From contig JBEIDK010000002.1 in the NCBI GenBank assembly GCA_040383485.1, forward strand, positions 7,766 through 71,765: a stretch of DNA of 64,000 nt, in the 5' to 3' direction. Position numbers and translations under genes: made by a program. Positions 32,731 through 57,735 of this stretch are shown here, piece by piece (position 1 is the stretch's first letter; the number at the start of each line of letters is the position of its first letter). A model generated the notes under the pieces. The model had not been told where the DNA came from. It ran no database searches and worked only from the letters and a program-made list of their open reading frames with translations. The stretch comes from Flavobacteriales bacterium. Lineage in GTDB: Bacteria > Bacteroidota > Bacteroidia > UBA4408.

Positions 32731-32818
32731 GTTAATGAGTCAATTAGTCAATGTGCCAATTAGCCGATGAGTCAATTAGTCAATTAGTTAATGTGTCAAT
32801 TAGCCAATTTGAAGATTT
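32731..32818 (+). repeat. octamer array, ~11 units of G(T/C)CAAT(T/G)(A/T)
   Basis: Units: gttaatga gtcaatta gtcaatgt gccaatta gccgatga gtcaatta gtcaatta gttaatgt gtcaatta gccaattt gaagattt. The period is exactly 8 nt. Confidence 0.9.
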
Positions 32819-32912
32819 GATATCAAATCCTTAGTGAAACTCTGTGAAACAAAAAAAGTGATAAGTTTAAACTTTAAACCTGACCCGAGGCGAAGCTAAA
32901 AAGTTCGAAGCA

Positions 32913-32965
32913 AAACCTAAAACCTGAAACCTGAAACCTGAAACTTGAAACCTGAAACTTGAAAC
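32913..32965 (+). repeat. heptamer tract, 7.5 units of AAAC(C/T)TG, running into the start codon of the next gene
   Basis: Units: AAACCTA AAACCTG x3 AAACTTG AAACCTG AAACTTG AAAC. The TTG of the last full unit (32959) is the only available start for the dehydrogenase ORF. Confidence 0.9.
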
Positions 32966-34236
32966 AAAAAACAAACATAATACTATCCGTAACCGGACTT
33001 GGCTATGTAGGACTACCCTTAGCACTAGAATTTGCTAAGAAATACAAAGTCATTGGTTTTGATATCAACGAAGCTCGGATTGCACTGATGAAGCAAGGTA
33101 TTGATCCTTCTCAAGAATTAGGTTCGGAAGCTTTTGATAATGCCAATATCACGTTTACTTCGGTAGTTGAACCTTTGACGGAGGCCAATTTTCACATTAT
33201 TGGGGTTCCAACCGATATTGATAAAAACAAAGTACCCAATTTAAAACCGTTAATAAGCGCCTCAAAGAGCATCGGTAAAATACTAAAAAAGGGAGATATC
33301 GTTGTATATGAATCAACCGTTTATCCGGGTTGTACCGAAGAAGATTGCATACCTGTTTTAGAAAAATATAGTGGATTAATTGCTGGGGTTGATTTTCAAT
33401 TCGGTTACAGTCCAGAGCGCATTGTGCCTGGCGATAAAGTAAAAACGGTTAGTAAAATATTAAAAATTGTTTCTGGAAACAGTGCCGAAGCTTTGGAACA
33501 CATTTCGGAAGTATACGGCTCTATTATTGAAGCAGGTTTACACAAAGCACCTTCCATCAAAGTTGCAGAAGCTGCTAAAGTGATTGAAAATACGCAACGC
33601 GACATCAATATTTCGTTAATGAATGAATTGGCGATTATTTTTGATAAAATGGATATTGATACCCAAGCGGTTTTGGAAGCTGCCGGAACCAAATGGAATT
33701 TTCACAAATACCAACCCGGTTTAGTGGGCGGCCACTGTATTAGTGTCGATCCGTTTTACTTAATGCACAAAGCGAAAAAATTGGGAATCGACCCGCAAGT
33801 CATTGCTGCTGGAAGACGCGTAAATGATTTTATTCCCACGTTTATTGCTAAAAAAGTCGTTCAAACATTGATCGAGCAAGATAAAAATCCAGGAAAATCC
33901 CGCGTGTTGGTGATGGGAGTTACCTTTAAAGAAGAAGTATCCGACATTCGAAATTCTAAAGTAATCGATTTGATAAAGGAACTAAAAGACTATTCTGTTG
34001 CAGTCGATGTCATTGATCCTAATGCAGACCCATTAGAACTGAAACAACATTATAATATTAATCTTTCACCCAACCCAACAGGGAAATACGACAGTATTGT
34101 TGTAGCAGTAGGACATCAAGCGTATCGCAACATGACACCATTAGAAATCGAAAAATTATCAAACGGCTCAGTATATCTATTCGACATCAAAGGCGTCCTA
34201 AATAAAAAAGACTTCAAAAATTATTGGAGATTGTAG
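32959..34236 (+). CDS. nucleotide-sugar (UDP-N-acetyl-hexosamine) dehydrogenase, TviB/WbpO/CapL family
   Basis: 425 aa. Contains GLGYVGLPLA (NAD binding), YSPERIVPGD and the catalytic GGHCISVDP. The start must be TTG 32959, because an in-frame TGA lies at 32953 and there is no ATG before the Rossmann motif. Confidence 0.85.
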   Translation: MKQKTNIILSVTGLGYVGLPLALEFAKKYKVIGFDINEARIALMKQGIDPSQELGSEAFDNANITFTSVVEPLTEANFHIIGVPTDIDKNKVPNLKPLISASKSIGKILKKGDIVVYESTVYPGCTEEDCIPVLEKYSGLIAGVDFQFGYSPERIVPGDKVKTVSKILKIVSGNSAEALEHISEVYGSIIEAGLHKAPSIKVAEAAKVIENTQRDINISLMNELAIIFDKMDIDTQAVLEAAGTKWNFHKYQPGLVGGHCISVDPFYLMHKAKKLGIDPQVIAAGRRVNDFIPTFIAKKVVQTLIEQDKNPGKSRVLVMGVTFKEEVSDIRNSKVIDLIKELKDYSVAVDVIDPNADPLELKQHYNINLSPNPTGKYDSIVVAVGHQAYRNMTPLEIEKLSNGSVYLFDIKGVLNKKDFKNYWRL

Positions 34237-34283
34237 GCAATGTGTCAATTAGCCAATTAGCCGATGAGTCAATTTGAAAATTT
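34236..34283 (+). repeat. octamer array (6 units) starting on the stop codon
   Basis: Units: ggcaatgt gtcaatta gccaatta gccgatga gtcaattt gaaaattt. The first G is the last base of the TAG stop (34234-36). Confidence 0.85.
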
Positions 34284-34326
34284 GTTATTCAATAGTATAA
34301 AAAACAAACCACAATAAATAAAAACC

Positions 34327-34352
34327 TTGGCGCCCTTGCGTCTTAGCGGCAA
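34327..34352 (+). promoter_or_regulatory. GC-rich conserved box / potential stem-loop 6 nt upstream of the wzz ATG
   Basis: TTGGCGCCCTTGCGTCTTAGCGGCAA. A near-identical box lies at 50327..50351 before rmlD. The ends (TTGxCGC / GCGGCAA) are complementary. Confidence 0.45.
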
Positions 34353-34357
34353 TACAT

Positions 34358-35419
34358 ATGGAAACACCAAACGACGAAATTACCCTAAAAGAACTTATCC
34401 TTAAAGTTAAAGAGTGGTATACCTTTTTGCTTTCTCAATGGAAAACAATTGCATTAGCAGGAATCATAGGAGCCCTATTAGGTTTGGGCTATTCTTTTTA
34501 TAAAAAACCAGTGTATACTGCTACACTTACCTATGCACTAGAAGACGGAAAGTCAAGTAGTGGTTTAGGAGGAGCATTAGGACTAGCCAGTTCATTTGGA
34601 TTGGATTTAGGAGGATCTTCAGGTGGAGCCTTTTCGGGAGCCAATTTAATGGAATTGTTTAAATCTCGTGCTATGGTAGAGCAAACTTTATTAGCGCCAG
34701 TAACACAAAACAACAAAACCATTTCCTTAGCCGAAATGTACATTCAAGATAAAAAGTGGCGTGAGAAATGGGGAAAAAAGGCAAAGTTGAAGGTTATAAA
34801 ATTCTTACCAAATACAGATAGAGCCAAATTCACCCGAGTGCAAGACAGTATTTTTGGTGTGATTTATAACGATTTATCTAAAAACGCTTTAACAGTAGAC
34901 CAAAAAGATAAAAAAGTAGCCATTGGAACCATCACTCTAAAAGGCACTAACGAATACTTTGCACAGCAATTTACGTTAGCATTAACCAAAACGGTTACCG
35001 ATTTTTACATCGAAACCAAAAGCAAACGTGCCAAAGAAAACATGGACATTTTAGTACGTCAAACCGATTCCATTCGTGCCGAGTTAAACGGTGCCATAAC
35101 CGGAGTAGCCGTAGCCAACGACAATACATTCGGACTGAATCCTGCGCTAAATGTAAAACGAGTACCATCAGCCAGACGACAAGTAGACGTTCAAGCGAAC
35201 ACCGCCATTTTAACTGAAATCGTAAAACAAGCCGAATTAGCTAAAGTAACCCTACGTAAAGAAACCCCATTAATTCAAATCATCGACCAACCCATTTTAC
35301 CTTTACCAAAAGAAAAATTCGGAAAAGTAAAAGGAATCCTTTTAGGCGGCATCTTAGCTGGGTTTTTAACTGTTTTAGGATTGATTGTAAGAAGAATTTT
35401 TAAAGAGTTAAGTATTTAA
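34358..35419 (+). CDS. Wzz-like chain-length determinant (polysaccharide co-polymerase without kinase domain)
   Basis: 353 aa. N-terminal TM helix (WKTIALAGIIGALLGLGYSFY), a long coiled periplasmic region and a C-terminal TM helix (GILLGGILAGFLTVLGLIV). Confidence 0.7.
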   Translation: METPNDEITLKELILKVKEWYTFLLSQWKTIALAGIIGALLGLGYSFYKKPVYTATLTYALEDGKSSSGLGGALGLASSFGLDLGGSSGGAFSGANLMELFKSRAMVEQTLLAPVTQNNKTISLAEMYIQDKKWREKWGKKAKLKVIKFLPNTDRAKFTRVQDSIFGVIYNDLSKNALTVDQKDKKVAIGTITLKGTNEYFAQQFTLALTKTVTDFYIETKSKRAKENMDILVRQTDSIRAELNGAITGVAVANDNTFGLNPALNVKRVPSARRQVDVQANTAILTEIVKQAELAKVTLRKETPLIQIIDQPILPLPKEKFGKVKGILLGGILAGFLTVLGLIVRRIFKELSI

Positions 35420-35462
35420 TGTGCCAATTAGTCAATTTGCCAATTAGACAATGTACCAATTT
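35415..35462 (+). repeat. octamer array (6 units) overlapping the wzz stop codon
   Basis: Units: tttaatgt gccaatta gtcaattt gccaatta gacaatgt accaattt. The TAA stop is at 35417-19. Confidence 0.85.
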
Positions 35463-35659
35463 GACTCGAGGCACAGCCGAACACAACAAACCTGAAACTT
35501 GAAACTTTACCCAAGGACCCAACTGGTTAAGTATATAAAATTATACAAGATATATAAAGGACTTTTTACAGATATAAGCATAAAAACTATACGAAAAAAC
35601 AATATGTTTGTGTTTTAAAACATAAAATGACACAAAGAATTTCTTATTTAACACAATTA

Positions 35660-36200
35660 CAGCAATGGATTGACAGACCGCAGCACAGCGCCTTTATTAT
35701 ATTACCTTATATGACTTATATGTTAAAAATTAGTCAATGAGTCAATTAGACAATGTGCCAATTTGAAAATTCGTCATTCAATAGTATAAAAGGAATTGTT
35801 ACCTTCGAGAACCTCAGTCAACAGCGAGAGCCTCAGTCAAAAGACAATTAGACTTGTACTCACTTATATTTCTTAAATGAACTTAAACTAAGCGCAGCGC
35901 CTTTCTTACAATTAACTTATATGACTTATATGTTAAAAATTAGCCAATGAGTCAATTAGACAATATGACAATTAGCCGATTAGTCAATGTGCCGATTAGG
36001 AAATGTGACAATTTAAAGATTCAGTATTCATCAGTATTAATGCAATTGTTGACTTCGAGTGCCTCAGTCAACAAAGAGTGCCTCAGTCAAAAGACAATTA
36101 GACTTATACTCACTTATATGCCTTATATGGTTTAAAATTAGCCGATGAGTCAATTAGACAATATGACAATTTGCCAATTAGGAAATGTGCCAATTTGACT
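35660..36200 (+). repeat. ~2.5 tandem copies of a ~200-210-nt composite intergenic repeat
   Basis: The core CTTATATGACTTATATG lies at 35706 and 35916, with the variant CTTATATGCCTTATATG at 36113. Each is followed by an octamer array (35733-72, 35943-36022, 36141-96). The duplicated segments 35790-35900 and 36040-36150 both read ...cttcgag.gcctcagtcaaca..gag.gcctcagtcaaaagacaattagactt.tactcacttatat... Confidence 0.85.
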
Positions 36201-36221
36201 CGAGGCACAGCCGAACACAAC

Positions 36222-36300
36222 AAACCTGAAACTTGAAACTTGCAACTTTACCCAAGGCAAAGCCAAACAGTGCGAAGCAAAACCTGAAACCCGAAACCTT
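36222..36300 (+). repeat. two heptamer AAACYTG tracts flanking a GGCAAAGCC box, ending 17 nt before the ATG
   Basis: 36222-49: AAACCTG AAACTTG AAACTTG CAACTTT. 36280-300: AAACCTG AAACCCG AAACCTT. Confidence 0.8.
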
Positions 36301-36316
36301 AAACAAAAAAACTAAA

Positions 36317-36733
36317 ATGAAAAAAGCCATCATAGTCTCTGGATATTTCAACCCCATCCACAAAGGCCATGTTGAATATTTCAACAATGCCAAAGCGTTG
36401 GGCGATTACCTTATTGTAATTGTCAATAACGACAAACAACGCGCCTTGAAAGGCAGTAAAGAATTCCAACTAGAAGACGAACGTGTGTTTATCGTGTCCA
36501 ATATCAAAAGCGTAGACCAGGTATTTCTTTCCATTGATGAAGACCGTACCGTTTGTACAACTATACAACACATCCACGAACAATTGCACAAAGACTACCA
36601 GCTGGCTTTTGCCAATGGTGGCGACCAAAACAATAACTCCATACCCGAAGCTCCGATTTGTGAAAAATTAGGTATTGCATTATTAGATGGTTTGGGGGAT
36701 AAAATTCAATCGTCGAGTTGGTTGTTGAAATAA
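36317..36733 (+). CDS. cytidylyl/adenylyltransferase-family protein (HxGH nucleotidyltransferase; TagD/RfaE-domain-II-like)
   Basis: Track ORF 36233..36733 starts inside the heptamer repeats. The ATG at 36317 gives MKKAIIVSGYFNPIHKGHVEYF (HxGH motif) and a 138-aa product typical of this family. Confidence 0.7.
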   Translation: MKKAIIVSGYFNPIHKGHVEYFNNAKALGDYLIVIVNNDKQRALKGSKEFQLEDERVFIVSNIKSVDQVFLSIDEDRTVCTTIQHIHEQLHKDYQLAFANGGDQNNNSIPEAPICEKLGIALLDGLGDKIQSSSWLLK

Positions 36734-36815
36734 TATAAATATAATTGGAAATATCAGTTGGATCTCAATTGGTTTTTGATTTTAATATAAAGTGTAAATT
36801 TATTAATAAAATAGT

Positions 36816-37415
36816 ATGTTAAGATATTATAAAATATATGGATTATATGGATTGATTAGACTGTTTAGGGATAAATTCTTCACGTATTTTTACTATCCAA
36901 ATGCTAGAATAATCAGACTGCCTTTTTACATAAGAGGAAAAAAAGGTATAAGAGGGGCCAAATATCTTACAACTGGAATAAATTTAAGAATTGATATTAT
37001 TTCAAGAAAAAATTTCACTCCAACATTACAAATTGGAGACAATGTACAATTTAATGATTATGTTCATATAGCAGTAGCTAAAGGAGTTTTTATAGGAGAT
37101 AATACATTAATTGCTTCAAAAGTTTTTATTTCTGACCACAATCACGGAAATTATGCTAACGAAAATCAATCAAACCCGAATACTCCTCCAATTGAGAGAG
37201 AGTTGTTTTCTAAAGAAGTACATATTGGAAATAATGTTTGGATAGGTGAATTTGTATCTGTTTTACCTGGTGTTACAATTGGCGAAGGTTCAATAATTGG
37301 TTCAACCAGTGTAGTATCTAAAGATATTCCAGCGTTTTGTATTGCAGTTGGATCTCCAGCTAAAGTGATTAAAACGTATGACAAGGATACGAATAAATGG
37401 GTTAATGAAATTTAA
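36816..37415 (+). CDS. left-handed beta-helix (hexapeptide) O-acetyltransferase, WcaF/maltose-acetyltransferase-like
   Basis: 199 aa with hexapeptide repeats ([14 protein letters not shown]...[19 protein letters not shown]...[31 protein letters not shown]). Confidence 0.75.
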
Positions 37416-37421
37416 TAAATT

Positions 37422-38117
37422 ATGTTTATAATTGCCTCAATTTCATACGCAATATCCATTTTTATTGATGTGTTTGCGTATCATTTAAAATTGAATATAC
37501 ACGATAACAATAATGTTAGATATTTATTTTCATTAATCAACATATTTCAATTTTCAGCACGGGCTTTTGTGTTAATTTTTATTCCGATAATGGCATATTA
37601 TACAGAGACTGTCAAGGATAAAAATATCGTTTGGGAAATAACTTTATTATCACATTTATTTGTGGTTGTATTTTTATTACCTTTATATTCAAATAAATTT
37701 TCACAGGGATTTTCCATAAATATAATTAAAATTTTAAATATTATTTTCGGAAAATCAAAAAAAATTAGCTTTGAAAAACTTGAGCAAATAAAACCTAGAG
37801 AAACAAATACAATTAATAAATCAAAATTTAATAAGTTTTATTTTGTTTCATTTACTTTTATTTCTGGATTTATGTTTTCTTACAGTATAACTTTTTTATA
37901 TTATTTGAGTTTTTCTTATCCACAAAAGGCTTTAACATTAACTTCTTATAGTCAAATTTTGAATATGATTGGGGTTTTATTACTTGTATTACTAATTGAT
38001 CCAAGAATTATGAGTTCAATAGATAAAGGCGAAGGCTCGGAAGAAATTAAATTATTAACTACAAGTAGAATATTAGTACACATAACTTTAGTAATAACCT
38101 TGTTATTAATAAAATGA
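37422..38117 (+). CDS. small polytopic membrane protein, possibly Amj (DUF2837)-family lipid-linked-glycan flippase
   Basis: 231 aa with ~6 TM segments. By recollection the Amj-like pattern is an N-terminal helix followed by FAYHLKL...SLINIFQFSAR, and near the C-terminus LLIDPRIMSSIDKGEGS...TSRILVH. The stop overlaps the next start (ATGA). Confidence 0.4.
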   Translation: MFIIASISYAISIFIDVFAYHLKLNIHDNNNVRYLFSLINIFQFSARAFVLIFIPIMAYYTETVKDKNIVWEITLLSHLFVVVFLLPLYSNKFSQGFSINIIKILNIIFGKSKKISFEKLEQIKPRETNTINKSKFNKFYFVSFTFISGFMFSYSITFLYYLSFSYPQKALTLTSYSQILNMIGVLLLVLLIDPRIMSSIDKGEGSEEIKLLTTSRILVHITLVITLLLIK

Positions 38118-39124
38118 TAGTAACTATAATATTAATATCAATCTTGTTTTTTAATTATTATTTACTGTGCCAAAATCACATTAAAATTCATAATAAATTA
38201 ATATATGTGATTTTTTTTATTTTCTTATCAGTTTTTTTAAGAACCATTATACCTACAGAGATAAACAAGGATTACGTAGGTTACTTTGAGCTATATAATT
38301 TTGAAAATCCAGAAAATTTAGTCTCTTTTTTAATATCGGAACCTTATTTATACCTAATGTATAATTTTTTTGAATTATTTACATCAAATAAACGGATTAA
38401 CATTGAATGTATTTATTGGTTTAATTTACTAATTAGTCTTTATTTTTATATTTGGTTAGCCTTTAGAAAAGATATTGAACTTTGGAAAAAAGTTGTAATT
38501 TTTGTATTTTATTATTTTCTAACAAGTTATGTTGTATTAAGAAATGCTCCAGTTTATTTTATTTACTCGTATTTTTTTTATTACGGTTTCAGGTCTTTAA
38601 AATATAATAAAATAATTTTCACCCCATTAATGCATATAAGCTCAGTGCCACTATTGTTATTAATATTCTATAAAAGTAAAAGATATTACAAATATTTATT
38701 TTCAGCTTTAGTAATTGTTATACCGATTTTAATAACTATAGTTTTACCTATTATTGAAAGCGTTGAAGAGATAAAATCCTCTTTAGATAAAGCAGACGCT
38801 TATGCAGAAGGGATGACTGAAGTTGGAGTTTTTCATAAAATATATTTTTGCTTCATTTCTGTGATATTTATAGTTGGTTGGATTAATTATAAAGAGAAAG
38901 TATTACATCCATTAATTATAACAACATTTCTTATATACTATATCTCATTTTTTATTAATCCTGTAATTGGATTTAGGTTTTCTCCATATGTTATTTTTGC
39001 AATATTATTGAATAATTTTAAAGGCAATTACAATTTTCCAGCAATAACAAAGGTTTTAAATTTAATCATTATCCTATTATTGCCTTATTTCATTTTTACT
39101 TTTATCGACACTCATCATCTATGA
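38114..39124 (+). CDS. EpsG-family / Wzy-type polysaccharide polymerase
   Basis: 336 aa with ~10 TM segments. Aromatic-rich and extremely AT-rich, with size and topology typical of EpsG-type polymerases. No soluble domain. Confidence 0.6.
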   Translation: MIVTIILISILFFNYYLLCQNHIKIHNKLIYVIFFIFLSVFLRTIIPTEINKDYVGYFELYNFENPENLVSFLISEPYLYLMYNFFELFTSNKRINIECIYWFNLLISLYFYIWLAFRKDIELWKKVVIFVFYYFLTSYVVLRNAPVYFIYSYFFYYGFRSLKYNKIIFTPLMHISSVPLLLLIFYKSKRYYKYLFSALVIVIPILITIVLPIIESVEEIKSSLDKADAYAEGMTEVGVFHKIYFCFISVIFIVGWINYKEKVLHPLIITTFLIYYISFFINPVIGFRFSPYVIFAILLNNFKGNYNFPAITKVLNLIIILLLPYFIFTFIDTHHL

Positions 39125-40047: not shown

Positions 40048-40049
40048 AA

Positions 40050-40655
40050 ATGTATAAAAAATATATAAAAAGTATATTTGATTTTAGTATCGCTTTTGTA
40101 GTTTTCTTTTTTTTGTTACCTGTATTCGTGATTGTGCTTGTTGGTTTGTATGTAGCTAATCAAGGCAAACCTTTCTTTTTTCAAATACGTCCAGGTAAAA
40201 ATGAAAAAACATTCAAAATTATTAAGTTCAAAACGATGAATGATAATAAGAATAGTGATGGAATTTTACTTTCTGACGCGCAACGTTTAACAAAAATTGG
40301 TAACTTTGTAAGGAAAACATCAATAGACGAATTACCTCAATTAATAAATGTATTGAAAGGAGAAATGAGCTTAATAGGCCCAAGACCTTTATTGCCGGAA
40401 TATTTGACTTTATATAATGAAACTCAAAAGAGAAGGCATGAGGTTAAACCTGGAATTACAGGTTGGGCGCAAGTAAACGGTCGTAATGCAATTAGTTGGG
40501 AACAAAAATTTGAATTTGATGTTTGGTATGTAAATCATGTTTCTTTTTTACTCGATTGTAAAATTGTATATTTAACAATAAATAAAGTTTTTAAACGGGA
40601 AGGTATAACTTCAGAAAATTCAGTTTCAGCAGAAGCTTTTAAAGGAAGAAATTAA
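40050..40655 (+). CDS. PglC-type (small monotopic) phosphoglycosyl transferase / bacterial sugar transferase
   Basis: 201 aa. N-terminal KSIFDF plus a re-entrant helix, then PFFFQIRPGKNEKTFKIIKFKTM, the catalytic IDELPQL and GPRPLLPEY. Confidence 0.85.
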   Translation: MYKKYIKSIFDFSIAFVVFFFLLPVFVIVLVGLYVANQGKPFFFQIRPGKNEKTFKIIKFKTMNDNKNSDGILLSDAQRLTKIGNFVRKTSIDELPQLINVLKGEMSLIGPRPLLPEYLTLYNETQKRRHEVKPGITGWAQVNGRNAISWEQKFEFDVWYVNHVSFLLDCKIVYLTINKVFKREGITSENSVSAEAFKGRN

Positions 40656-40661
40656 TAATAT

Positions 40662-41306: not shown

Positions 41307-41326
41307 TAATAAATAAATAAATAATT

Positions 41327-42606: not shown

Positions 42607-42607
42607 T

Positions 42608-43705
42608 ATGATACAAAAACTAAAACCAATTCATTACACTAACAGAGAATATTTCGACAAAGAAATTTTAGATATTTTCGAAAATAATTGGCAATTTGCT
42701 TGTATGAAATCTGAACTTTCAGAAAGATTTAGCTATTTTGTTGTTGAATATGGTAATAAATCCTATTTCGTTACAAATGCTGGAAAAGATGGTATACGTG
42801 CATTTAAAAATGTATGTTCACACCGTGCAAATAAAATATTTTTGGATGATTTTGGTAAGAGACCAATAATGTGTTTATATCACAATTGGACTTATAACAG
42901 TGAAGGAAAGCCAATTAATGCTTTTGCAAAAGATTTTTTTGAAACACCAGAAGAATCAGATTTGTTATTAGAACAATATGAAGTTCAAATTGTAGGGGAG
43001 TTTGTTTTTGTAAATGTAGGAAATTCTAAAATAACAATTGAGGAACAATTAGGCGAATTTCATAATAAATTGATTGAAATATCAAATGCCTTAGGAGTAA
43101 AAATTACTTATGACTGTAATTTGCATAAAGCAAATTGGAAGTTATTAGTAGAGAATGTTTTGGAATGTTATCATTGTTTACCGGTTCATAAAAATTCCTT
43201 GGTAGAGCGTCTTGGAGTTGGGCTAAAGCCTTTTGTGAAGTTTGAATTTTTCAACGGAAATTCCTCTGGTCATTTACCTATTGAAAATAATCAAGTTTCA
43301 GTCAAAAGAAAAAAAATACTAAATTACCTTGATAAGAGAGAATTTAAACATGATTCATATTATCATTTATTTATTTATCCAAATTTATTCATTTCATCAA
43401 CAGAAGGAATTTCTTTTTACATTGGCCATGCATTGCCTAATAATTTCTGCGAGACAAATCTTCGAACCCGTTATTTTGAATGTAAAATAAAAAATATTGA
43501 GGAATATAGAAATTATCAGGATTTTTTAAATTCTGATATTGTTAATTTCGGAAATGAAATTCTAAATGAAGACAAAATAATCATTCAGAATGTTCAAAAA
43601 GGATTGGAAATAAGTAATAAAAGTTTATATCTAAACAAAGAAGAGTTTAGGATAAAAGAATTTCAAGAACATTATTGTTTACAAATAAATGCGTATGATT
43701 TTTAA
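42608..43705 (+). CDS. Rieske [2Fe-2S] non-haem-iron oxygenase, alpha-subunit type
   Basis: 365 aa. The Rieske motif is CSHRANKIF-x-CLYHNW (CxH-x16-CxxH). The mononuclear iron motif is NWKLLVENVLECYHCLPVH. Confidence 0.8.
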   Translation: MIQKLKPIHYTNREYFDKEILDIFENNWQFACMKSELSERFSYFVVEYGNKSYFVTNAGKDGIRAFKNVCSHRANKIFLDDFGKRPIMCLYHNWTYNSEGKPINAFAKDFFETPEESDLLLEQYEVQIVGEFVFVNVGNSKITIEEQLGEFHNKLIEISNALGVKITYDCNLHKANWKLLVENVLECYHCLPVHKNSLVERLGVGLKPFVKFEFFNGNSSGHLPIENNQVSVKRKKILNYLDKREFKHDSYYHLFIYPNLFISSTEGISFYIGHALPNNFCETNLRTRYFECKIKNIEEYRNYQDFLNSDIVNFGNEILNEDKIIIQNVQKGLEISNKSLYLNKEEFRIKEFQEHYCLQINAYDF

Positions 43706-44450
43706 TAACAAATTAGATGTTAATAATAAAAACATCTTAATTACAGGCGCGACATCGGGTATAGGTTTTGCAACATCACAACTGTTAATAAATTTAGGAT
43801 GTTCACTTTATGTAGTTGGAAGAAATAGAGTAAAACTTGATGAACTCGAAACTTTGGGAAAAGGAAAAGTGGTTTCTTTACAAGCTGATTTAAGAAATAT
43901 TAATGATATAAAAATGATTATAGATACAATTTCTAAAATTGATGGTTTTGTTCATTCTGCAGGTGTAGTAAATAGTATTCCTTTGCAATTTATTAATCAT
44001 GAATCTCTTGAAATTGAGCGTTCTTTAAATTATGATGCTTTTGTGTTTTTAACTCAAAATTTAGTTAAGAAGAAAAAAATTAATTCTGATGGATCAATAG
44101 TTTCTCTTGCTTCAATTGCTGCTCACTTTGGTATAATTGGTAGTTCAATTTATTGTGGTAACAAAGCAGCTTTAATAGCTACATCAAAAGTTTTCGCAAA
44201 AGAGTTAGCAAATAAAAGGATTAGAGTTAATACAGTTTCACCTGGAATTGTCCGGACGGAAATGGTCAACAATGCTGAGGGACAACATTTAACAAAGGAT
44301 GCTCTTATTTTGGATGAACAAAAATACCCTTTGGGATATGGTGAGCCAGATGATGTCGCTTATTGTATTACTTTTTTACTTTCAGATGCAAGTAAATGGA
44401 TTACAGGCCAAGATATTATTTTAGATGGTGGTAGAACTTGTTATGTTTAA
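43689..44450 (+). CDS. short-chain dehydrogenase/reductase (FabG-like ketoreductase), copy 1
   Basis: 253 aa. Contains ITGATSGIGFA (TGxxxGIG) and SIYCGNKAAL (YxxxK). It overlaps the upstream gene by 17 nt. Confidence 0.85.
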   Translation: MRMIFNNKLDVNNKNILITGATSGIGFATSQLLINLGCSLYVVGRNRVKLDELETLGKGKVVSLQADLRNINDIKMIIDTISKIDGFVHSAGVVNSIPLQFINHESLEIERSLNYDAFVFLTQNLVKKKKINSDGSIVSLASIAAHFGIIGSSIYCGNKAALIATSKVFAKELANKRIRVNTVSPGIVRTEMVNNAEGQHLTKDALILDEQKYPLGYGEPDDVAYCITFLLSDASKWITGQDIILDGGRTCYV

Positions 44451-44461
44451 AAGTAAATAGT

Positions 44462-45514
44462 ATGGAAAAAATATTTAAAAATATTTCAATTTCTGGTATT
44501 TCTACAGTTGTTCCTGAGACTGTTTTGAATTTGGAAACATTAAGTTCTGTTTATGGGAATGATGATGTTAGGAAAATTATATCTACTACAGGTATTAAAG
44601 AAGTCCGTATTGCAGACAATGAGACAACAGCTTCGGACTTATGTTTTCAAGCAGCACAACATTTGATTAAGCAATTGGACATAGATAAGAACGAAATAGA
44701 TGGATTAATATTTGTTTCTCAGACTAACGATTATAGTTTGCCGCAAACAAGTAATGTTTTACAAAGTCGATTAGGGCTTAATGAAAATGTTTTTTGCTTA
44801 GACATCAGATTAGGATGTAGCGGTTATGTTGTAGGTTTATTTCAGGCTTCGTTATTAATCAATTCTGGTGCATGTAAAAATGTTTTGGTTTTAGCAGGTG
44901 ATACTACATCAAAAATAATAAATCCAAAAGATAAGTCTTTAAGAATGGTTTTTGGTGACGCTGGTTCGGCTACTTTTGTTAAAAGTGGTTCTGATGATAT
45001 AGGCTTTAAAATCCATAATAAGGGGTCAGGATTTTCCGAATTAATTATTCCTGCAGGGGGGTTTAGAAAACCAATTTCAAGCCTAACTTCCAATGAAATC
45101 AGTGATAAAGACGGCAATATTAGATCAGAAAATGATTTGTACATGAATGGTGCCGAAATCTTTAATTTCGCAATTAATAATGTACCTACTTTAATTGATG
45201 ATTTAATAAAAATTGCAAAATGGTCTAAAACAGATGTTGATTTATTTTTATTCCATCAAGCTAATAACTTTATGGTTGAATATTTAAAACGTAAATTGAA
45301 AATAATTACTGAGAAAGTGCCTTTAGGTGTAGAAAATTATGGAAATACAGGACCGTGCTCAATACCGCTACTTTTAAGTCATATATCTGGGAAACAATTT
45401 TCTTCGGACAAAGTTATAATGTGTGGTTTTGGAGTAGGATTATCATGGGCTGGCTGTTATACAAATTTATCAAAAACAAAATTTTTTAAAACAATTGATT
45501 ATATAAAAGATTAA
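44462..45514 (+). CDS. KASIII (FabH-like) 3-oxoacyl-ACP synthase / acyltransferase, copy 2
   Basis: Track ORF is 44438..45514. The ATG at 44462 gives MEKIFKNISISGIS. Triad: RLGCSGYVVG, FLFHQANNF, YGNTGPCSIP. Confidence 0.85.
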   Translation: MEKIFKNISISGISTVVPETVLNLETLSSVYGNDDVRKIISTTGIKEVRIADNETTASDLCFQAAQHLIKQLDIDKNEIDGLIFVSQTNDYSLPQTSNVLQSRLGLNENVFCLDIRLGCSGYVVGLFQASLLINSGACKNVLVLAGDTTSKIINPKDKSLRMVFGDAGSATFVKSGSDDIGFKIHNKGSGFSELIIPAGGFRKPISSLTSNEISDKDGNIRSENDLYMNGAEIFNFAINNVPTLIDDLIKIAKWSKTDVDLFLFHQANNFMVEYLKRKLKIITEKVPLGVENYGNTGPCSIPLLLSHISGKQFSSDKVIMCGFGVGLSWAGCYTNLSKTKFFKTIDYIKD

Positions 45515-45516
45515 AA

Positions 45517-45744
45517 ATGAAAGAATTATTATTATTAAAAATAAATGAAGTTTTAGAGGGCAAAAGCATGCCAATTTTAACAGACATTAATTCAGATACA
45601 ATTTTGAGAGATGGGTTAGGGTTGGATTCTTTTGATTTAGCTGAATTAACTGTTAGAATAGAAGAAGAAACAGATATTGATATATTTTCAAACGGTATTG
45701 TAACAACTGTAGGTGAAATATTACATATATTGGAGAATAATTAA
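45517..45744 (+). CDS. acyl carrier protein (ACP-2)
   Basis: 75 aa, acidic, with a Ser motif (GLDSFDLAELTV). Confidence 0.7.
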   Translation: MKELLLLKINEVLEGKSMPILTDINSDTILRDGLGLDSFDLAELTVRIEEETDIDIFSNGIVTTVGEILHILENN

Positions 45745-45758
45745 ACAAAAAATCTCCT

Positions 45759-46991
45759 ATGTTTTATATTAACGAAAACAATTCAGAATATTTTAGCTAC
45801 AAGGAGCTTGTAATCTACTTAAACGAGTCAGGAAGTATTATTACAAACCCTTACAAAACTTCTACTTTAGATTTGTTTAAAAATTTGATTAAAGCTTTGA
45901 TTCATAACAAAGATTTAATTTTATTAGATAATGATTTTACAGATACTGAAATAATTTCGCTTATTGGAGAAAAATATATTGAAAATGTTGTCTCAGTAGA
46001 TAGTTTAGGATTTGATAGTTTTAAATCATATTTACAGTTAATAATTGAATCTAAAAGTAAAATTACTATTTATACTTCTGGTACAACAGGCCTTCCAAAA
46101 AAAGTGGTTCATACTATTAGATCATTGACAAGAGAAGTTAAGACTGGATTAATTTTTGAGTCATCAATTTGGGGTTTAGCTTTCAATCCTACTCACATGG
46201 CTGGTCTTCAGGTGTTTTTCCAAGCATTATTTAACAATAACACCTTAGTTGATTTATTTAATATTGATACAAAAACCGTTAAAGAATCAATAATAAAATA
46301 TAAAATTTCTCATATTTCAGCTACACCAACATTTTACAGATTACTAAATAGTAAAGATATTATTTTTAATGGTGTTAAGTCTGTTACTTTAGGAGGTGAG
46401 AAGTCGGAAGATAATTTGTACAGGATAGTTAAAAGAATGTTTCCTTTTGCAAAAGTTAAAAACATTTATGCATCAACTGAGGCAGGATCCTTATTGAGTT
46501 CTGATGGTGAATTTTTTTATATTCCAGAGCGTTTGAAGGATAAAATTGTTATTAAAGAAAATGTACTTTATATTAATGAGTCATTATTAGGTAAAATGTC
46601 GGATCTTTTGATAGAAAAAGGCTGGTATTGTAGTGGCGATGTTATCGAATTTAAAAGTGATTCCCTTGATTATTTCAAATTGATTGGTAAATCAAATGAA
46701 ATGATAAATGTTGGAGGATATAAAGTAAACCCGCATGAAGTAGAATTAGAACTTAGGTGTATCGATGGAATTGACAATGCTTTTGTATTTGGTAAGGCTA
46801 ATTCTGTATTAGGAAATCTTATATGTGCTGAGATTGTTTTAGAAAAGGGCATTGAAATAGAAGAGACAAAAATCAAAGATATTTTAAGGGAAAAATTGCA
46901 ACAATTCAAAATTCCACGTAAAATATTTTTTGTTGATAAATTAAATTTAAATAGAACAGGAAAAATAAGTAGATCAAATGTTACAAAATAA
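45759..46991 (+). CDS. AMP-dependent ligase (adenylate-forming acyl-ACP/CoA ligase), short form
   Basis: 410 aa. Contains the AMP-binding core IYTSGTTGLPKKVVHT, YASTEAG, and GDV...GYKVNPHEVE...PR..TGKI. Confidence 0.8.
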   Translation: MFYINENNSEYFSYKELVIYLNESGSIITNPYKTSTLDLFKNLIKALIHNKDLILLDNDFTDTEIISLIGEKYIENVVSVDSLGFDSFKSYLQLIIESKSKITIYTSGTTGLPKKVVHTIRSLTREVKTGLIFESSIWGLAFNPTHMAGLQVFFQALFNNNTLVDLFNIDTKTVKESIIKYKISHISATPTFYRLLNSKDIIFNGVKSVTLGGEKSEDNLYRIVKRMFPFAKVKNIYASTEAGSLLSSDGEFFYIPERLKDKIVIKENVLYINESLLGKMSDLLIEKGWYCSGDVIEFKSDSLDYFKLIGKSNEMINVGGYKVNPHEVELELRCIDGIDNAFVFGKANSVLGNLICAEIVLEKGIEIEETKIKDILREKLQQFKIPRKIFFVDKLNLNRTGKISRSNVTK

Positions 46992-47712
46992 AAATATTTT
47001 AATTACTGGGTGTTCCAGAGGACTTGGTTTGGAAATTGTTAAAGAACTTTTACTTCAAGGTGCAAATGTATATGGTGTTAGTAGAACTCTTTCTCCGGAG
47101 TTTAATTTGTTAACTGAACAATATAGTGGAAAAGTTTTTTTTAATAAGTTTGACTTAATAGCTACAAATGAGGTTGAAGTAAAAATTTTTAAAGAATGGC
47201 TAAACAATAAAATTGTCATTCATGGTTTTGTTAATAATGCAGCTGTAGCATATGATGACATTATTACAAATATGAATGTAGTTTCACTTGAATCAATGTT
47301 TAAAATTAATGTATTTAGTCCTTTAATTGCTGTAAAAGCGGTTTTGCGTAATATGATATTTAATCGAACTAAAGGTGGTATTGTTCATGTTTCATCTATT
47401 AGCGTTCATACTGGTTATAAAGGTTTGTCGATGTATGCCGGCTCTAAAGGTGCTTTAGAAGCTTTTTCGAAAAACACAGCAAGAGAATGGGGTGAAAAGC
47501 AAATAAGAAGTAATTGTCTTGTTGCCGGATTTATGGAGACTGAAATGAGCGGTACACTTTCGAATGAACAAAGAGATCGAATATTTAAAAGAACTTCGTT
47601 AAAAGTTCCAACAACATTAAATTCGGTTGCCAAGACAGTATGTTTTTTATTGTCAGATGCTGCGGAATCAATAACGGGTCAAAATATTCATGTTGATTCA
47701 GGTACAATTTAA
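46978..47712 (+). CDS. short-chain dehydrogenase/reductase (ketoreductase-like), copy 2
   Basis: 244 aa. Contains ITGCSRGLGLEI and SMYAGSKGAL (YxxxK). It overlaps the ligase by 14 nt. Confidence 0.85.
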   Translation: MLQNKNILITGCSRGLGLEIVKELLLQGANVYGVSRTLSPEFNLLTEQYSGKVFFNKFDLIATNEVEVKIFKEWLNNKIVIHGFVNNAAVAYDDIITNMNVVSLESMFKINVFSPLIAVKAVLRNMIFNRTKGGIVHVSSISVHTGYKGLSMYAGSKGALEAFSKNTAREWGEKQIRSNCLVAGFMETEMSGTLSNEQRDRIFKRTSLKVPTTLNSVAKTVCFLLSDAAESITGQNIHVDSGTI

Positions 47713-47725
47713 ATAATTTCATGTG

Positions 47726-48862
47726 ATGTTTAATAAAATATGGCTCTCCTCACCGCACATGGGAGGCACAGAGCAAAACTACGTACACGAAGCGTTTGAA
47801 GCCAACTGGGTGGCACCACTAGGTCCTAATGTAAATGGTTTAGAACAAGATTTAGAACACTATTTGGGGAATAATGCTCACGTAGGCGCTCTGAGTTCAG
47901 GAACAGCCGCCATTCATTTAGGATTGATTTTATTAGGCGTACAAGCGGGAGATGAGGTTATTTGTCAAAGCATGACTTTTTCAGCTTCTGCCAACCCCAT
48001 TTTATATTTAGGAGCAACCCCTGTTTTTATAGATAGTGAAGCACAAACTTGGAACATTTGCCCAGATGCTTTAGAGCAAGCCATTCAAGATCGTATATCA
48101 AAAGGTAAAAAACCAAAAGCCATAATTGCGGTGCATTTATATGGGGTACCTTATCAAATAGAAGCCGTTAGAGCTATTGCAGATAAATATCAAATACCCA
48201 TTTTAGAAGATAGTGCTGAGGCTTTAGGGAGTTCTTACAAAGGACAAAAATGCGGTACTTTTGGAGATATTGGGGTGCTTTCCTTCAATGGTAACAAAAT
48301 TATTACTACATCTGGTGGAGGAGCAATTGTCACTAAAACAGCTACTCAAAAAGAGAAAGCCGTTTTCTATGCTACACAATCACGAGATAATGCACCACAT
48401 TATCAACACAGCCATATTGGTTACAATTACCGCATGAGTAATATTTGTGCTGGTATTGGTAGAGGTCAAATGGAAGTCTTAGACGAACATGTTGCTTTGA
48501 GAAGACAAATGCACGATTTTTATGTAGATATATTTGCTTCCATCGAAGGAGTCGAAGTTTTTTCTGTTCCTGACGATAATTATTTTGCTAATTATTGGTT
48601 GAGTGCCATTACTATAGATACCACAAAAACCAATGGTATAACTGCTGATACTTTACGCTTAGCCCTTGACGCTGAAAACATTGAATCACGCCCTCTGTGG
48701 AAACCGATGCATTTGCAACCTATTTTCTCCAACTATCCGTATTACGGAAGCAACGTAGCCGAAACTCTATTTGAAAACGGCCTGTGTTTGCCTTCCGGGT
48801 CTAATTTATCAGATAAGGATAGATATAGAATAGAAAAACTAATTGAGCAGGTGTTTGGGTAG
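47726..48862 (+). CDS. DegT/DnrJ/EryC1/StrS-family PLP aminotransferase (PglE/EpsN-like UDP-4-keto-6-deoxy-HexNAc 4-aminotransferase)
   Basis: The track start at 47723 is GTG, and the ATG at 47726 is preferred. Contains LSSPHMGGTEQNYVHEAFEANWVAPLGPNV and the PLP lysine region (SFNGNKIITT). Confidence 0.9.
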   Translation: MFNKIWLSSPHMGGTEQNYVHEAFEANWVAPLGPNVNGLEQDLEHYLGNNAHVGALSSGTAAIHLGLILLGVQAGDEVICQSMTFSASANPILYLGATPVFIDSEAQTWNICPDALEQAIQDRISKGKKPKAIIAVHLYGVPYQIEAVRAIADKYQIPILEDSAEALGSSYKGQKCGTFGDIGVLSFNGNKIITTSGGGAIVTKTATQKEKAVFYATQSRDNAPHYQHSHIGYNYRMSNICAGIGRGQMEVLDEHVALRRQMHDFYVDIFASIEGVEVFSVPDDNYFANYWLSAITIDTTKTNGITADTLRLALDAENIESRPLWKPMHLQPIFSNYPYYGSNVAETLFENGLCLPSGSNLSDKDRYRIEKLIEQVFG

Positions 48863-48901
48863 TCAATGAGTCAATGTGCCAATGAGTTGATTAGGGAATA
48901 A
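48862..48901 (+). repeat. octamer array (5 units) starting on the last base of the stop codon
   Basis: Units: gtcaatga gtcaatgt gccaatga gttgatta gggaataa. The TAG stop is at 48860-62. Confidence 0.8.
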
Positions 48902-49444
48902 ATTTTAATTTTATAAATAGTAATAATTGATTATCCTTATTTATTTTTGAATTGAGCGAAGCGACTTTATATATTTTACAATACTCTTTGTGTTCTTGGT
49001 GCCTTCCTAGTGCCCTTTGTGGTTAAGCTGTTTACCGAGTGACAAACAAATTGGACATAATAATCCACTTATAAGCACTTTAACGTACTATAACAACGCA
49101 CTTAAACTTTATTATATACCTTAAATGTTAAAAAAAAATAGTTAATGAGCCAATAATGTTATTTAGATATATAATAACGAATGATGAATTTTAACCACAT
49201 AGAAACATAGATTTAAAAAATAAAAGTAAGATATAGTAATAGTACTATTATTCACATAGTTTAATAGATTATTCTTACACGTACTCGAATAGAGCGAAGC
49301 GACTTCTTATATTTTCTTATATGCCTTATATGTTTAAATAAAATAGCAACGAGCCAATTTGCTTCAAAGTAAAACCGTAAGTAGCAAAGCTAAAATCGTA
49401 ACTCGCATCACAAACAACTAACAACGAATCACGAACAAAAAAAT

Positions 49445-49993
49445 ATGACTATAGAAACCACCTCCATAAACGATCTAATCATCATCAATCCTTCTGTTTT
49501 TGAAGACGAACGCGGCTATTTTATGGAGTCGTTTAATCAACAAAAATTACAAGAAGCAGGCATTCACATCCCTTTTGTACAAGATAACCAATCGTTTTCC
49601 AAACAAGGGACATTAAGAGGTTTGCATTATCAAAATCCGCCGTATGCACAAACCAAATTAGTGCGGGTATTGCATGGTGAAATTATGGATGTAGCCTTAG
49701 ATCTTAGAAAGAACTCTCCAACTTACGGGCAACATTTTGCAATTAAGTTATCGGCTGAGAACAAAAAGCAATTATTGATTCCGCAAGGTTTTGCACACGG
49801 CTTTTCGGTGATCAGTGAAACCGCTGTCGTGTTGTATAAATGCGATCAATTCTATAACAAAGCCAGTGAAGGCGGTATTCGTTTTGATGATCCTACATTG
49901 AACATTGACTGGGGCATCGATTTAAAAACAGCTATTGTTTCAGATAAGGATATAGAGTTGCCAAATTTTGCTGATTGTAATAGTGGATTTTAA
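49445..49993 (+). CDS. rmlC: dTDP-4-dehydrorhamnose 3,5-epimerase
   Basis: 182 aa. Contains FEDERGYF.E, RGLHYQ, KLVRVL.G...DVA.DLR..SPTYG and QL.IP.GFAHGF. Confidence 0.92.
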   Translation: MTIETTSINDLIIINPSVFEDERGYFMESFNQQKLQEAGIHIPFVQDNQSFSKQGTLRGLHYQNPPYAQTKLVRVLHGEIMDVALDLRKNSPTYGQHFAIKLSAENKKQLLIPQGFAHGFSVISETAVVLYKCDQFYNKASEGGIRFDDPTLNIDWGIDLKTAIVSDKDIELPNFADCNSGF

Positions 49994-49996
49994 TTA

Positions 49997-50050
49997 GCCA
50001 ATGAGGCAATTTGTCAATCAGCCGATGTGCCACTAGTCAATAGCCAATAC
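49997..50050 (+). repeat. degenerate octamer array (~6 units) 3 nt after the rmlC stop
   Basis: Units: gccaatga ggcaattt gtcaatca gccgatgt gccactag tcaatagccaat. Confidence 0.7.
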
Positions 50051-57606: not shown

Positions 57607-57735
57607 ATTTTTCATCGATTAATTTAACTTTTTATCGAAAATAATACAAAAATAAAGTTAACATTTTGTAACATTGTAAAATAACATGAATAAAATTTAG
57701 AATTCCTCTACATTTTTTAAAGAAAAATTACATTT

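Follow-up and report, generated by a model that had tools for sequence, protein, structure and literature searches.

CAAT octamer arrays in a Flavobacteriales polysaccharide locus appear to be a local example of a Bacteroidota-wide gene-end tandem repeat

Results

The window, by which we mean the whole 64,000-nt stretch of Flavobacteriales DNA that was analyzed, holds a polysaccharide locus headed by a gene for a UpxY-type NusG paralog (30173-30631), and its spacers carry arrays of an octamer, of which GUCAAUUA is an example. The first array (32731..32818, plus strand, 11 units) lies 70 nt behind a 168-aa ORF and directly behind a conserved box, GGGACTGACCAGGCGAAGCCGTGGAG. The second (34236..34283, plus strand, 6 units) has its start on the stop codon (TAG, 34234-34236) of a ugd/TviB-like dehydrogenase gene, and the third (35415..35462, plus strand, 6 units) contains in its first unit, TTTAATGT, the TAA stop (35417) of a Wzz-like gene. 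Three more plus-strand arrays are found at 35.7-36.2 kb, where a composite repeat of ~200 nt is present in tandem copies: 5 units at 35733..35772 within copy 1, behind the box CTTATATGACTTATATGTTAAAAATTA, 10 units at 35943..36022 within copy 2, and 7 units at 36141..36196 within copy 3. The last of these is followed by a GACTCGAGGCACAGCC box and then by GAAACYT heptamers as far as the ATG at 36317. Also on the plus strand, 5 units at 48862..48901 start on the TAG stop (48860-48862) of a gene for a DegT-type aminotransferase, and an array of four octamers and then three heptamers (49997..50050) is preceded by a unit, TTTTAATTA, that contains the TAA stop (49991) of rmlC. The ninth and longest array (57505..57608, 13 units) is on the minus strand between two plus-strand genes, 37 nt behind a sugar transferase gene and 127 nt before a T9SS cargo gene. 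Two-unit remnants are located on the plus strand at 53807..53822 (GCCAATGA GTCAATGT, behind a CTTACATGACTTATATG box) and 54016..54031 (GCCAATGA GTCAATAA, behind a CTTATATGACTTATATG box).

The original prediction had listed eight of these arrays with their unit counts, and the remnants near 53808 and 54017, all of which we recover. It described every array as sense-oriented, which is true of the eight but not of the ninth, which it had missed, as it had the stop-codon starts of four arrays. The 8-nt period that it called strict is kept except at the end of the 49997 array, where it lapses to 7. Most arrays were said to share a terminal unit; the exact ending CCAATTTGA is present in only 4 of the 8, while the looser CAATTT(G/A)A is found in 6. 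A 28-mer that was quoted as recurring occurs once, and only its first 16 bases are found three times, all inside the composite at 35.7-36.2 kb.

All nine arrays are intergenic and consist of 4-13 units arranged head-to-tail, which makes them tandem repeats of the 5-11-nt kind. The pattern CAAT-N4-CAAT-N4-CAAT, that is (CAAT-N4)x3, has 20 matches in the 64-kb window where 0.04 are expected, and periods of 8 and 16 are also called in the arrays by TRF. The consensus of the 67 units is G-N-C-A-A-T-(G/T)-(A/T), or GNCAATKW, with G in 62/67, any base at position 2, C in 54/67, A in 58/67, A and T in 67/67 each, G/T in 63/67 and A/T in 64/67. Variability is uneven, the core G..CAAT being far more constant than positions 2, 7 and 8, both in the window and across the phylum. 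Some blocks are common to different arrays, such as CCAATTAGCCGATGAGTCAATT at 32757 and 34253. Inside the locus 6 of 11 long gaps carry an array, against 0 of 8 outside (p = 0.018); the cluster of nine reflects the unusually many long spacers of the locus together with local duplication of the ~200-nt composite.

The four array starts at stop codons of upstream genes (TAG 34234, TAA 35417, TAG 48860, TAA 49991) are part of a wider rule. About half of the arrays in the Bacteroidota sample start exactly on the stop of the upstream gene on the same strand. Scoring an array as anchored when a sense ORF of 100 codons or more has its stop within -10 to +20 nt of the array start, we find a same-strand stop at the array start in 49 arrays, against an antisense stop at the other end in 7 (p = 7e-9). 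The stop falls in register with the repeat, TAA taking the CAA slot, TAG the K-W-G slot and TGA the T-K-W slot. Since the density of stop triplets per unit is about equal on the two strands (0.73 vs 0.69 in the window, 0.63 vs 0.48 in the phylum), the stop-triplet content of the repeat cannot account for this bias. The arrays hug stop codons rather than starts, the median distance to the next same-strand start being ~160 nt among the Bacteroidota arrays. Between co-directional genes there is no significant overall bias in orientation (27 sense vs 20 antisense, p = 0.38), which, together with the long antisense array of the window, argues against a strict function of the sense RNA.

A tighter pattern, CAATKWGN x3, matches at least 120 loci; among the matches listed, 91/120 are Bacteroidota by record title and these span at least six classes, with heterogeneous arrays that share one grammar. 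As in the window, the Bacteroidota arrays are intergenic (103 of 106), and the genes upstream of stop-anchored arrays include those for HemE, RNase E/G, FtsW, SRP54 and RuvC. The genes surrounding 15 Flavobacterium arrays are likewise housekeeping genes. Capnocytophaga and one Chitinophagaceae MAG have several unlinked array loci per genome. Near-copies of an array are few (2-6 contigs per genome at >= 80% likeness). One other run (X46) consists of a sense array with an antisense array immediately behind it.

Copies at orthologous positions, which the original prediction had asked for, are kept in relatives. The wza-upxY-ugd-wzz synteny is conserved across species with arrays in place, and the two slots that flank the ugd-like gene are maintained, with from 0 to ~11 units in them. 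At the ugd stop an array of 1-10 units is present in 13 of 16 orthologs of 81-89% amino-acid identity, the slot being empty in L243, L244 and L252, while in a more distant clade (74-79% identity) TACGA-type repeats fill it instead. The slot upstream of ugd, that of the 32731 array, holds 2 to ~11 units in relatives, and this array also differs between strains. Indels between orthologous arrays measure 8, 32 and 40 nt, all multiples of 8. Between relatives the arrays gain and lose whole units, which is what slipped-strand mispairing or unequal recombination would produce, and the slippage-derived origin put forward in the original prediction fits both these ortholog differences and the strain difference at 32731. 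On the other hand, the unit order of the 34236 array is 47/50 identical between the window and the ortholog L250, where coding third positions are only 53% identical. We take this order and the constant core as probable marks of constraint, which slippage by itself would not lead one to expect; as the spacer in its entirety is ~89% identical to that of L250, and closer to it than the flanks are, the L250 conservation may instead come from local recombination.

The RNA of the arrays folds no better than shuffled sequence (z-scores -0.74 to +0.94). Promoter and terminator scans gave results at chance level with no terminator at the arrays, and Rfam gave no match at gathering score in the whole window and none at E <= 1 in 32600-36400. 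An intrinsic terminator, which has a G+C-rich hairpin and then a U tract, is rejected on the grounds of the missing fold and terminator signal. An E. coli-type rut site is C-rich, G-poor and unstructured; the array RNA is unstructured but contains 14% C and 21% G, although the Rho of Bacteroidota may prefer otherwise. An ops/JUMPStart element for NusG paralogs (RfaH, UpxY), of which the controlled operon has a single conserved copy in its 5′ leader, is rejected, given that there are nine arrays at 3′-ends and cistron junctions and that arrays of the identical kind lie beside unrelated genes.

Discussion

Judged by sequence comparison, the octamer arrays are a local example of a Bacteroidota-wide, little-studied short tandem repeat of gene ends, and not a signal specific to this cluster. 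A link to polysaccharide loci or to the three regulators upstream, which the original prediction had put up for testing, is not supported, as the genomes of other Flavobacterium and Bacteroidota have the same kind of array next to unrelated housekeeping genes. The view that the arrays are something other than phased DNA-protein sites fits this absence of locus specificity; the helical-phase argument used to reach it is not evidence in itself. The original prediction would have been undone by a generic feature with neither positional nor strand preference; the arrays are indeed generic, but they follow a positional and strand rule.

We favor, at somewhat better than even confidence, the reading that the arrays are a Bacteroidota-wide gene-end repeat, resized by slippage, which places an unstructured tract behind the stop codon. 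On this view the arrays would be transcribed and make up the opening stretch of the 3′-UTR or of the intercistronic spacer, where they would give an A/U-rich tract devoid of structure, immediately after the ribosome that terminates. Such a tract would most likely serve as a general landing or spacer site for single-strand RNA-binding proteins. Proteins of the OB-fold type (S1, cold-shock domain, the N-terminal domain of Rho) are candidate binders because the footprint of OB-fold RNA binding, 6-8 nt, matches the period. In this way the arrays would keep cistron junctions unfolded without recruiting a locus-specific regulator. The RNA-level role envisaged originally is faintly suggested, as the stop anchoring is strand-specific but the overall orientation is not.

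A more specific RNA-level control is possible, although we regard it as doubtful. Here GNCAAU repeats behind the stop codon would be bound by a conserved Bacteroidota factor, perhaps Rho with the insertion specific to this phylum, or else a protein of the cold-shock-domain or RRM kind. Termination, processing or decay where cistrons join would depend on this binding, and the UpxY-type NusG paralog would override the arrays in the 25-kb operon. The strand-specific anchoring that stop content does not explain, the fixed core beside three variable positions, a unit order in L250 conserved beyond synonymous-site identity, an array RNA as unstructured as a single-strand platform should be, and the NusG/UpxY gene at the head of the locus would all agree with this, and antitermination is a role of cold-shock-domain proteins, whose binding covers 6-7 nt (PMC1636342, PMC1904285). 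CspB, however, binds CCAAT/ATTGG only weakly (PMC1904285), and the arrays contain more G than C, unlike rut sites. Moreover, many different 7-8-nt vocabularies (TACGA, GAAACYT, GTGAAAC, TTCAACA) occupy equivalent slots, which makes one specific reader protein unlikely, antisense arrays are common (20 of the 47 in co-directional pairs), and arrays are also found beside genes with no UpxY nearby.

A bolder version, which we think unlikely, would make the GNCAAU arrays a phylum-wide RNA signal whose reading starts at the stop codon. Its reader would be a conserved factor that binds single-stranded RNA over ~8 nt, for which a cold-shock-domain protein, S1 or the Bacteroidota Rho are candidates. 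It would load once the terminating ribosome frees the array, and would decide whether RNA polymerase continues into the following cistron, while NusG paralogs such as UpxY would override it at the junctions of long polysaccharide operons. If true, a phylum in which initiation is not led by Shine-Dalgarno sequences would have in the arrays a system for punctuating its gene ends.

It is rather improbable that the arrays are modules of recombination or mobility, in which array, CTTATATG box and GACYCRAGGC box would be parts of an intergenic mosaic that multiplies by being copied, the sequence shared among cistron junctions then allowing exchange or inversion of polysaccharide gene cassettes. The clustering of arrays in long gaps of the locus, the shared blocks, the tandem copies of the composite, the inverted array 7.5 kb downstream, the sense-antisense pair in X46 and the likeness of the window and L250 spacers beyond that of their flanks are all in keeping with such an element. 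Against it, neither a transposase nor a terminal inverted repeat nor a target duplication is present, the composite box in its long form was found in only one other genome, and array content differs from locus to locus, with few near-copies per genome and the wza-upxY-ugd-wzz order kept across species with the arrays in place.

We give slightly less credence still to the arrays being neutral by-products of slippage, lacking any effect on expression, tolerated in any spacer, and anchored simply because they expand until they meet coding sequence. Their fluid copy number, the empty slots in three orthologs and the different vocabularies in one slot are compatible with this, and the excess of 7-nt repeats has been put down to slippage in the literature (PMC4692102). 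Expansion should nevertheless work in both orientations, which the 49 vs 7 bias at similar stop density contradicts, and neither non-uniform variability across the unit nor one degenerate unit common to several classes of a single phylum is expected of such by-products. Finally, it is very improbable that the regulators at 30.2-32.7 kb (UpxY, WYL-like, two small proteins of 89 and 168 aa) bind the arrays as DNA or load there as at an ops/JUMPStart-like site: the arrays do adjoin these genes, and the first array separates them from the first biosynthetic gene, but equivalent arrays stand beside unrelated genes phylum-wide, they occupy 3′-ends and not one 5′ leader, an ops-like GGCGGTAG motif is absent, and an orthologous site may have 0 to 11 units.

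Compared with known systems, the gene-end repeat that we favor resembles the REP/BIME elements of enterobacteria in being a modular non-coding element of gene ends and cistron junctions with a small genome-wide vocabulary. REP units are palindromes that fold, whereas the octamer arrays are direct repeats with no fold. Published accounts of intergenic repeats of 5-11 nt include some whose arrays overlap the stop codon upstream (PMC4679880, PMC4692102). As summarized in these two papers, the LSSR of Mrazek, Guo and Shah (2007) have units of 5-11 nt and a function that is unexplained, with slippage invoked; the octamer arrays share with the LSSR so presented head-to-tail short units beyond chance length, a mostly intergenic and scattered distribution and whole-unit length changes, but differ in their unit (8 nt, against a dominant 7 nt), in their heterogeneity around a fixed core G..CAAT with three variable positions, and in their concentration in one phylum with a stop-codon anchoring rule. 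The STRR heptamers of heterocystous cyanobacteria and the GGGAATC and GGGGA(C/T)T repeats of Xanthomonas and Nostoc (Rehm, 2015, PMC4692102) are similarly lineage-specific short tandem repeats, which sit between the same genes of relatives and are very variable in length and sequence, although their units are G-rich and quadruplex-capable (PMC4692102) while the CAAT octamers are A/T-rich and unstructured.

The TAACTGA direct repeats of Beggiatoaceae, cyanobacteria and a few Bacteroidetes (MacGregor, 2015, PMC4679880) likewise lie between genes and prefer the "forward" orientation. Some sets overlap the stop of the upstream ORF, no RNA structure is predicted for them, and S1, Csp and Csr proteins have been proposed as their readers (PMC4679880). 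Unit and period differ, however, and TAACTGA sets are short (2-6 copies), homogeneous and mostly end just upstream of starts (PMC4679880), whereas the CAAT octamers hug stops. With a GNCAATKW unit and arrays that do not end near start codons, membership of the TAACTGA type is rejected. In the flavobacteria Gramella and Aequorivita, other heptamer repeats are found in the same spacers as TAACTGA (PMC4679880), and the GAAACYT heptamers of the window are placed like TAACTGA sets, up to the start codon. In conclusion, the octamer arrays belong to the class of intergenic 5-11-nt tandem repeats that includes LSSR, STRR and TAACTGA, a class that is known but unexplained, and within it the octamer family itself is new.

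Results

Octamer Arrays in the Window

The eight CAAT-octamer arrays first read from the sequence, at 32731–32818 (11 units), 34236–34283 (6), 35415–35462 (6), 35733–35772 (5), 35943–36022 (10), 36141–36196 (7), 48862–48901 (5) and 49997–50050 (about 6), were all confirmed in position and unit count. Tandem Repeats Finder called periods of 8 and 16 at the array sites, and the pattern CAAT-N4-CAAT-N4-CAAT occurs 20 times in the window (0.04 expected in shuffles), with every match at 32.7–57.6 kb. A profile built from 67 window units reads G (62/67), any base, C (54/67), A (58/67), A (67/67), T (67/67), G or T (63/67) and A or T (64/67). The original prediction that all arrays are sense-oriented is true of these eight but fails for a ninth and longest array of 13 units (57505–57608), which lies on the minus strand between two plus-strand genes. 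The terminal unit CCAATTTGA, said to be common to most arrays, ends four of the eight. The 28-mer quoted for the recurring unit order is found in full only once, and a match to its first 16 bases is seen at three places, each within one tandemly duplicated composite.

The arrays sit in the spacers of a polysaccharide locus that comprises, in order, a wza-like gene (minus strand), a NusG/UpxY-like gene (30173–30631), a WYL-like regulator (minus strand) with two small ORFs, the genes for a ugd/TviB-like dehydrogenase and a Wzz-like protein, about 15 biosynthetic genes, rmlC, rmlD, rmlB, a PD-(D/E)XK gene, rmlA, and finally a WbpM-like gene and a sugar transferase. In four cases the array begins on the stop codon of the gene ahead of it, namely the TAG of the ugd-like gene, the TAA of the wzz-like gene, the TAG of an aminotransferase gene and the TAA of rmlC. 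Long gaps hold arrays in 6 of 11 cases inside the locus vs. 0 of 8 elsewhere in the window (p = 0.018), a count that covers the window, in which the remaining sequence is mostly one 6443-codon gene and three arrays represent copies in a single tandem composite. Within the 6443-codon ORF (3342–22673, minus strand), a 258-nt unit is repeated nine times in tandem at 6924–9247. The inserted gene between rmlB and rmlA (52320–52721) is of the PD-(D/E)XK_3 family and has AAATTCGCG 9-mer repeats on both sides (52288–52321 and 52720–52762).

Other Modules of the Spacers

The octamer arrays are one module in a larger spacer grammar, in which a box CTTATATG-N-CTTATATG (10 occurrences vs. 0.28 expected in the window) is followed by the octamer array, often by a box GACYCRAGGCRMAGCC, and then by GAAACYT heptamers up to the next start codon. 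Ahead of many arrays the first box is part of a composite with a AGCGCAGCGCC-like box and TTAAAAATTAG, present in 10 copies (within 35680–36200 and at 49290–49335, 50165–50206, 53755–53800, 53960–54010 and 54135–54185); the 897-nt gap behind wzz is filled by three copies in tandem, each of about 200 nt. In its long exact form, the composite box (CTTATATGNCTTATATGNTWAAAATTAG) gave a single and uninformative match in 185,579 genomes, in one other species. Box GACYCRAGGCRMAGCC (32711–32736, 32882–32897, 35463–35478, 36197–36212, 36249–36278 and 54215–54244; 5 vs. 0.49 expected in the window) is placed between the octamer and heptamer tracts and bears GCGAAGC or GGC-NNN-GCC mini-hairpin motifs, GCGAAGC being found seven times in the window against 1.6 expected, six of them on the plus strand in spacers. 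This box also flanks TACGA-type repeats in other Flavobacterium species and is a candidate for the conserved core of the grammar.

The GAAACYT heptamer arrays (32913–32972, 35487–35507, 36221–36304 and 54245–54312; 16 matches vs. 0 expected) reach, or nearly reach, the next start codon. Contigs from freshwater metagenome and metatranscriptome runs gave the GAAACYT stretch a summed depth 20–40 times that of its flanks, and they had many different continuations leading to A-rich leaders and ATG; because of this depth and variety, heptamer tracts before start codons seem to be very common in freshwater communities. Over 32959–32990, the ugd-like ORF has no ATG ahead of its GLGYVG motif, and its only common start codon is a TTG at 32959, which lies within the final heptamer unit. 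This arrangement is common to ugd orthologs at 85–89% identity (89% being the best match among contigs of the genome collection searched); more distant orthologs have an ATG and a different N-terminus.

Array-bearing spacers also hold other vocabularies, namely GTGAAAC-containing 10–11-mers, GAGTAAT/AAGAGTAATGAGTT 7/14-mers and GGTAATA ×3 (50052–50094, 53835–53875, 54040–54080; 53878–53932, 54084–54120; 57456–57481). Metatranscriptome and "organism C" contigs give the locus only thin coverage. In X31, a public run labelled as probable RNA ("organism C"), a single 157-nt contig is identical to the 50014–50157 spacer, beginning within the 49997 array and covering the GTGAAAC repeats, and the flanking genes have no contig there. 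This single, weak observation may reflect a stable spacer-derived RNA. A contig from another organism (run X46), matched to window positions 35736–35771, carries a sense CAAT array directly followed by an antisense one (AATTGACACATTGATAAATTGGCACATTGA), which would pair into a long hairpin; no such pairing was seen in the window.

Distribution and Stop-Codon Anchoring

A scan for three consecutive CAATKWGN units, with one genome per species, gave at least 120 loci, and 91 of the 120 among the matches listed were Bacteroidota by record title. The taxa listed include Flavobacterium, Capnocytophaga, Chitinophagaceae, Saprospiraceae, Bacteroidales, Porphyromonas and Pedobacter, and most of the listed Bacteroidota arrays are heterogeneous, with the same unit grammar as in the window. 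Contigs matched to window arrays at ≥80% likeness numbered only 2–6 per run, which is not a copy census since heterogeneous arrays are too unlike each other. An association with polysaccharide loci is ruled out by Pfam tallies of genes neighboring arrays elsewhere: the neighbors of 15 Flavobacterium arrays are ordinary housekeeping genes, and those that precede stop-anchored arrays share no common function, among them genes for uroporphyrinogen decarboxylase, RNase E/G, FtsW, SRP54, RuvC, signal peptidase and glycoside hydrolases.

Among the matches listed, 103 of 106 Bacteroidota arrays are intergenic. Counting an array as anchored when the stop of a sense ORF of at least 100 codons lies −10 to +20 nt from its 5′ start, 49 of the 106 are anchored, whereas an antisense ORF stops at the other end in only 7 (p = 7e-9). 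The stop falls in register with the repeat, TAA taking the CAA place, TAG the K-W-G slot and TGA the T-K-W. We considered whether this bias arises from stop triplets confined to the sense strand and rejected the idea, because their numbers are similar on both strands (per unit, 0.73 vs. 0.69 within the window and 0.63 vs. 0.48 across the phylum), and the length that closes all three frames is equal (39 vs. 40 nt). Between co-directional genes, 27 arrays are sense and 20 antisense (p = 0.38); the polarity belongs to the anchoring and not to the presence of an array as such. The looser pattern (CAAT-N4)×5 retrieves mostly homogeneous octamer microsatellites from many phyla with a reversed stop bias (4 vs. 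12 and 7 vs. 21), for which reason this set is uninformative for the GNCAATKW family and the anchoring rule is specific to that family. Viral contigs gave 44 matches, mostly short homogeneous arrays, and add little (13 sense vs. 5 antisense stop contacts).

The Slot Behind ugd in Relatives

Synteny of the locus extends to related Flavobacterium species, and copies of the array are kept at orthologous positions: a CAAT-octamer array of 1–10 units stands at the stop of the ugd ortholog in 13 of 16 relatives (81–89% protein identity) and is missing from three. Upstream of ugd, a slot preceded by the conserved box GGGACTGACCAGGCGAAGCCGTGGAG holds from 2 to about 11 units in relatives. Length differences between orthologous slots are multiples of 8. 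The 34236 array is the same in near-identical strains from public runs; the 32731 array varies, with an expansion in one run and a shortened form in a second. In eight ugd loci at 74–79% identity (L253–L258, L301 and L307) the stop is followed by TACGA-type tandem units of 7–8 nt, e.g., GATATACGAGGTACGAAGTACGA, often with a short CAAT-type remnant after them. The slot is kept and the repeat vocabulary differs between closer and more distant Flavobacterium.

One relative, L250, has a nearly exact unit order (47 of 50 bases identical to the window), with about 89% identity over the whole spacer compared with 77–79% in coding DNA and 53% at third codon positions. Such likeness points to constraint acting on the spacer or, alternatively, to local recombination.

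Folding and Searches for Known Elements

Rfam gave no match at the gathering score in the window, or at E ≤ 1 in 32600–36400, and array RNA from either strand showed no folding beyond that of shuffled sequence (sense z −0.74 to +0.94). Promoter-like and terminator-like sites in the window are no more frequent than chance predicts, and no array coincides with one. The Bacteroidota −7 box is TAnnTTTG. The terminal CAATTTGA does not fit it, and a sigma-70-type scan was at chance, so that a promoter was rejected. A loading site of the ops/JUMPStart type was also rejected, because the arrays are many, lie at 3′ ends and are found beside genes without a nearby NusG paralog. A link to the Y-box (CCAAT/ATTGG) and cold-shock proteins is kept as a lead only, as CspB binds 6–7 nt but CCAAT/ATTGG only weakly (PMC1904285).

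Discussion

The arrays form a phylum-wide, intergenic and unstructured tandem-repeat family that changes length by whole units and is anchored to stop codons in one orientation. The original interpretation was right in part; the arrays are not a device of the polysaccharide locus. On balance we favor the view that they are generic stop-anchored simple sequence repeats that serve at most as a general spacer or landing tract. They would be transcribed as the stretch that directly follows a stop codon, and their role, if any, would be that of an unfolded A/U-rich tract. General OB-fold binders of single-stranded RNA would be the most plausible readers, given a footprint of 6–8 nt that matches the period; cold-shock proteins have been implicated in antitermination (PMC1904285, PMC1636342), and S1, Csp and Csr have been proposed as readers of TAACTGA repeats (PMC4679880).

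That the arrays are instead a specific RNA-level control element, possibly overridden by UpxY, we regard as doubtful, since the same slots hold many alternative vocabularies and antisense arrays are frequent, both of which speak against one specific reader. A recombination or mobility module seems improbable. We give a shade less credence still to a wholly neutral by-product, against which stand the fixed unit core, the polarity of the stop anchoring and the conservation in L250. DNA sites for the local regulators are very improbable.

If the bias is functional, it would mark an unrecognized step between the end of translation and transcript fate in a major phylum; if it is mutational only, the arrays would still serve as useful markers of variation among strains and call for care in annotation, as start and stop calls adjoining them are affected (e.g., the TTG start proposed at 32959). 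Neither the CAAT octamer itself nor the roughly 7-to-1 bias toward same-strand stops turned up in the literature searched, and the F. psychrophilum transcriptome paper makes no mention of such repeats. The positional rule is clean and testable and a quantitative addition to that literature, and the ugd slot, in an operon with a UpxY-type antiterminator at its head, offers a clean, conserved test case for array function.

To our knowledge, short tandem repeats of 7–8 nt fill many gene spacers of Bacteroidota, and a function has been shown for none. The CAAT octamers belong to a known, still unexplained class of short tandem repeats. Descriptions of this class cover the long simple sequence repeats with units of 5–11 nt (Mrazek et al., 2007, in the summary of PMC4679880), the STRR heptamers of cyanobacteria and the GGGAATC repeats of Xanthomonas (PMC4692102). 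TAACTGA repeats are found in Beggiatoaceae, cyanobacteria and five Bacteroidetes, and other heptamer repeats were noted in the flavobacterial spacers that contain them (PMC4679880). Some sets of TAACTGA repeats overlap upstream stop codons (PMC4679880), and in this they resemble the CAAT octamers described here.
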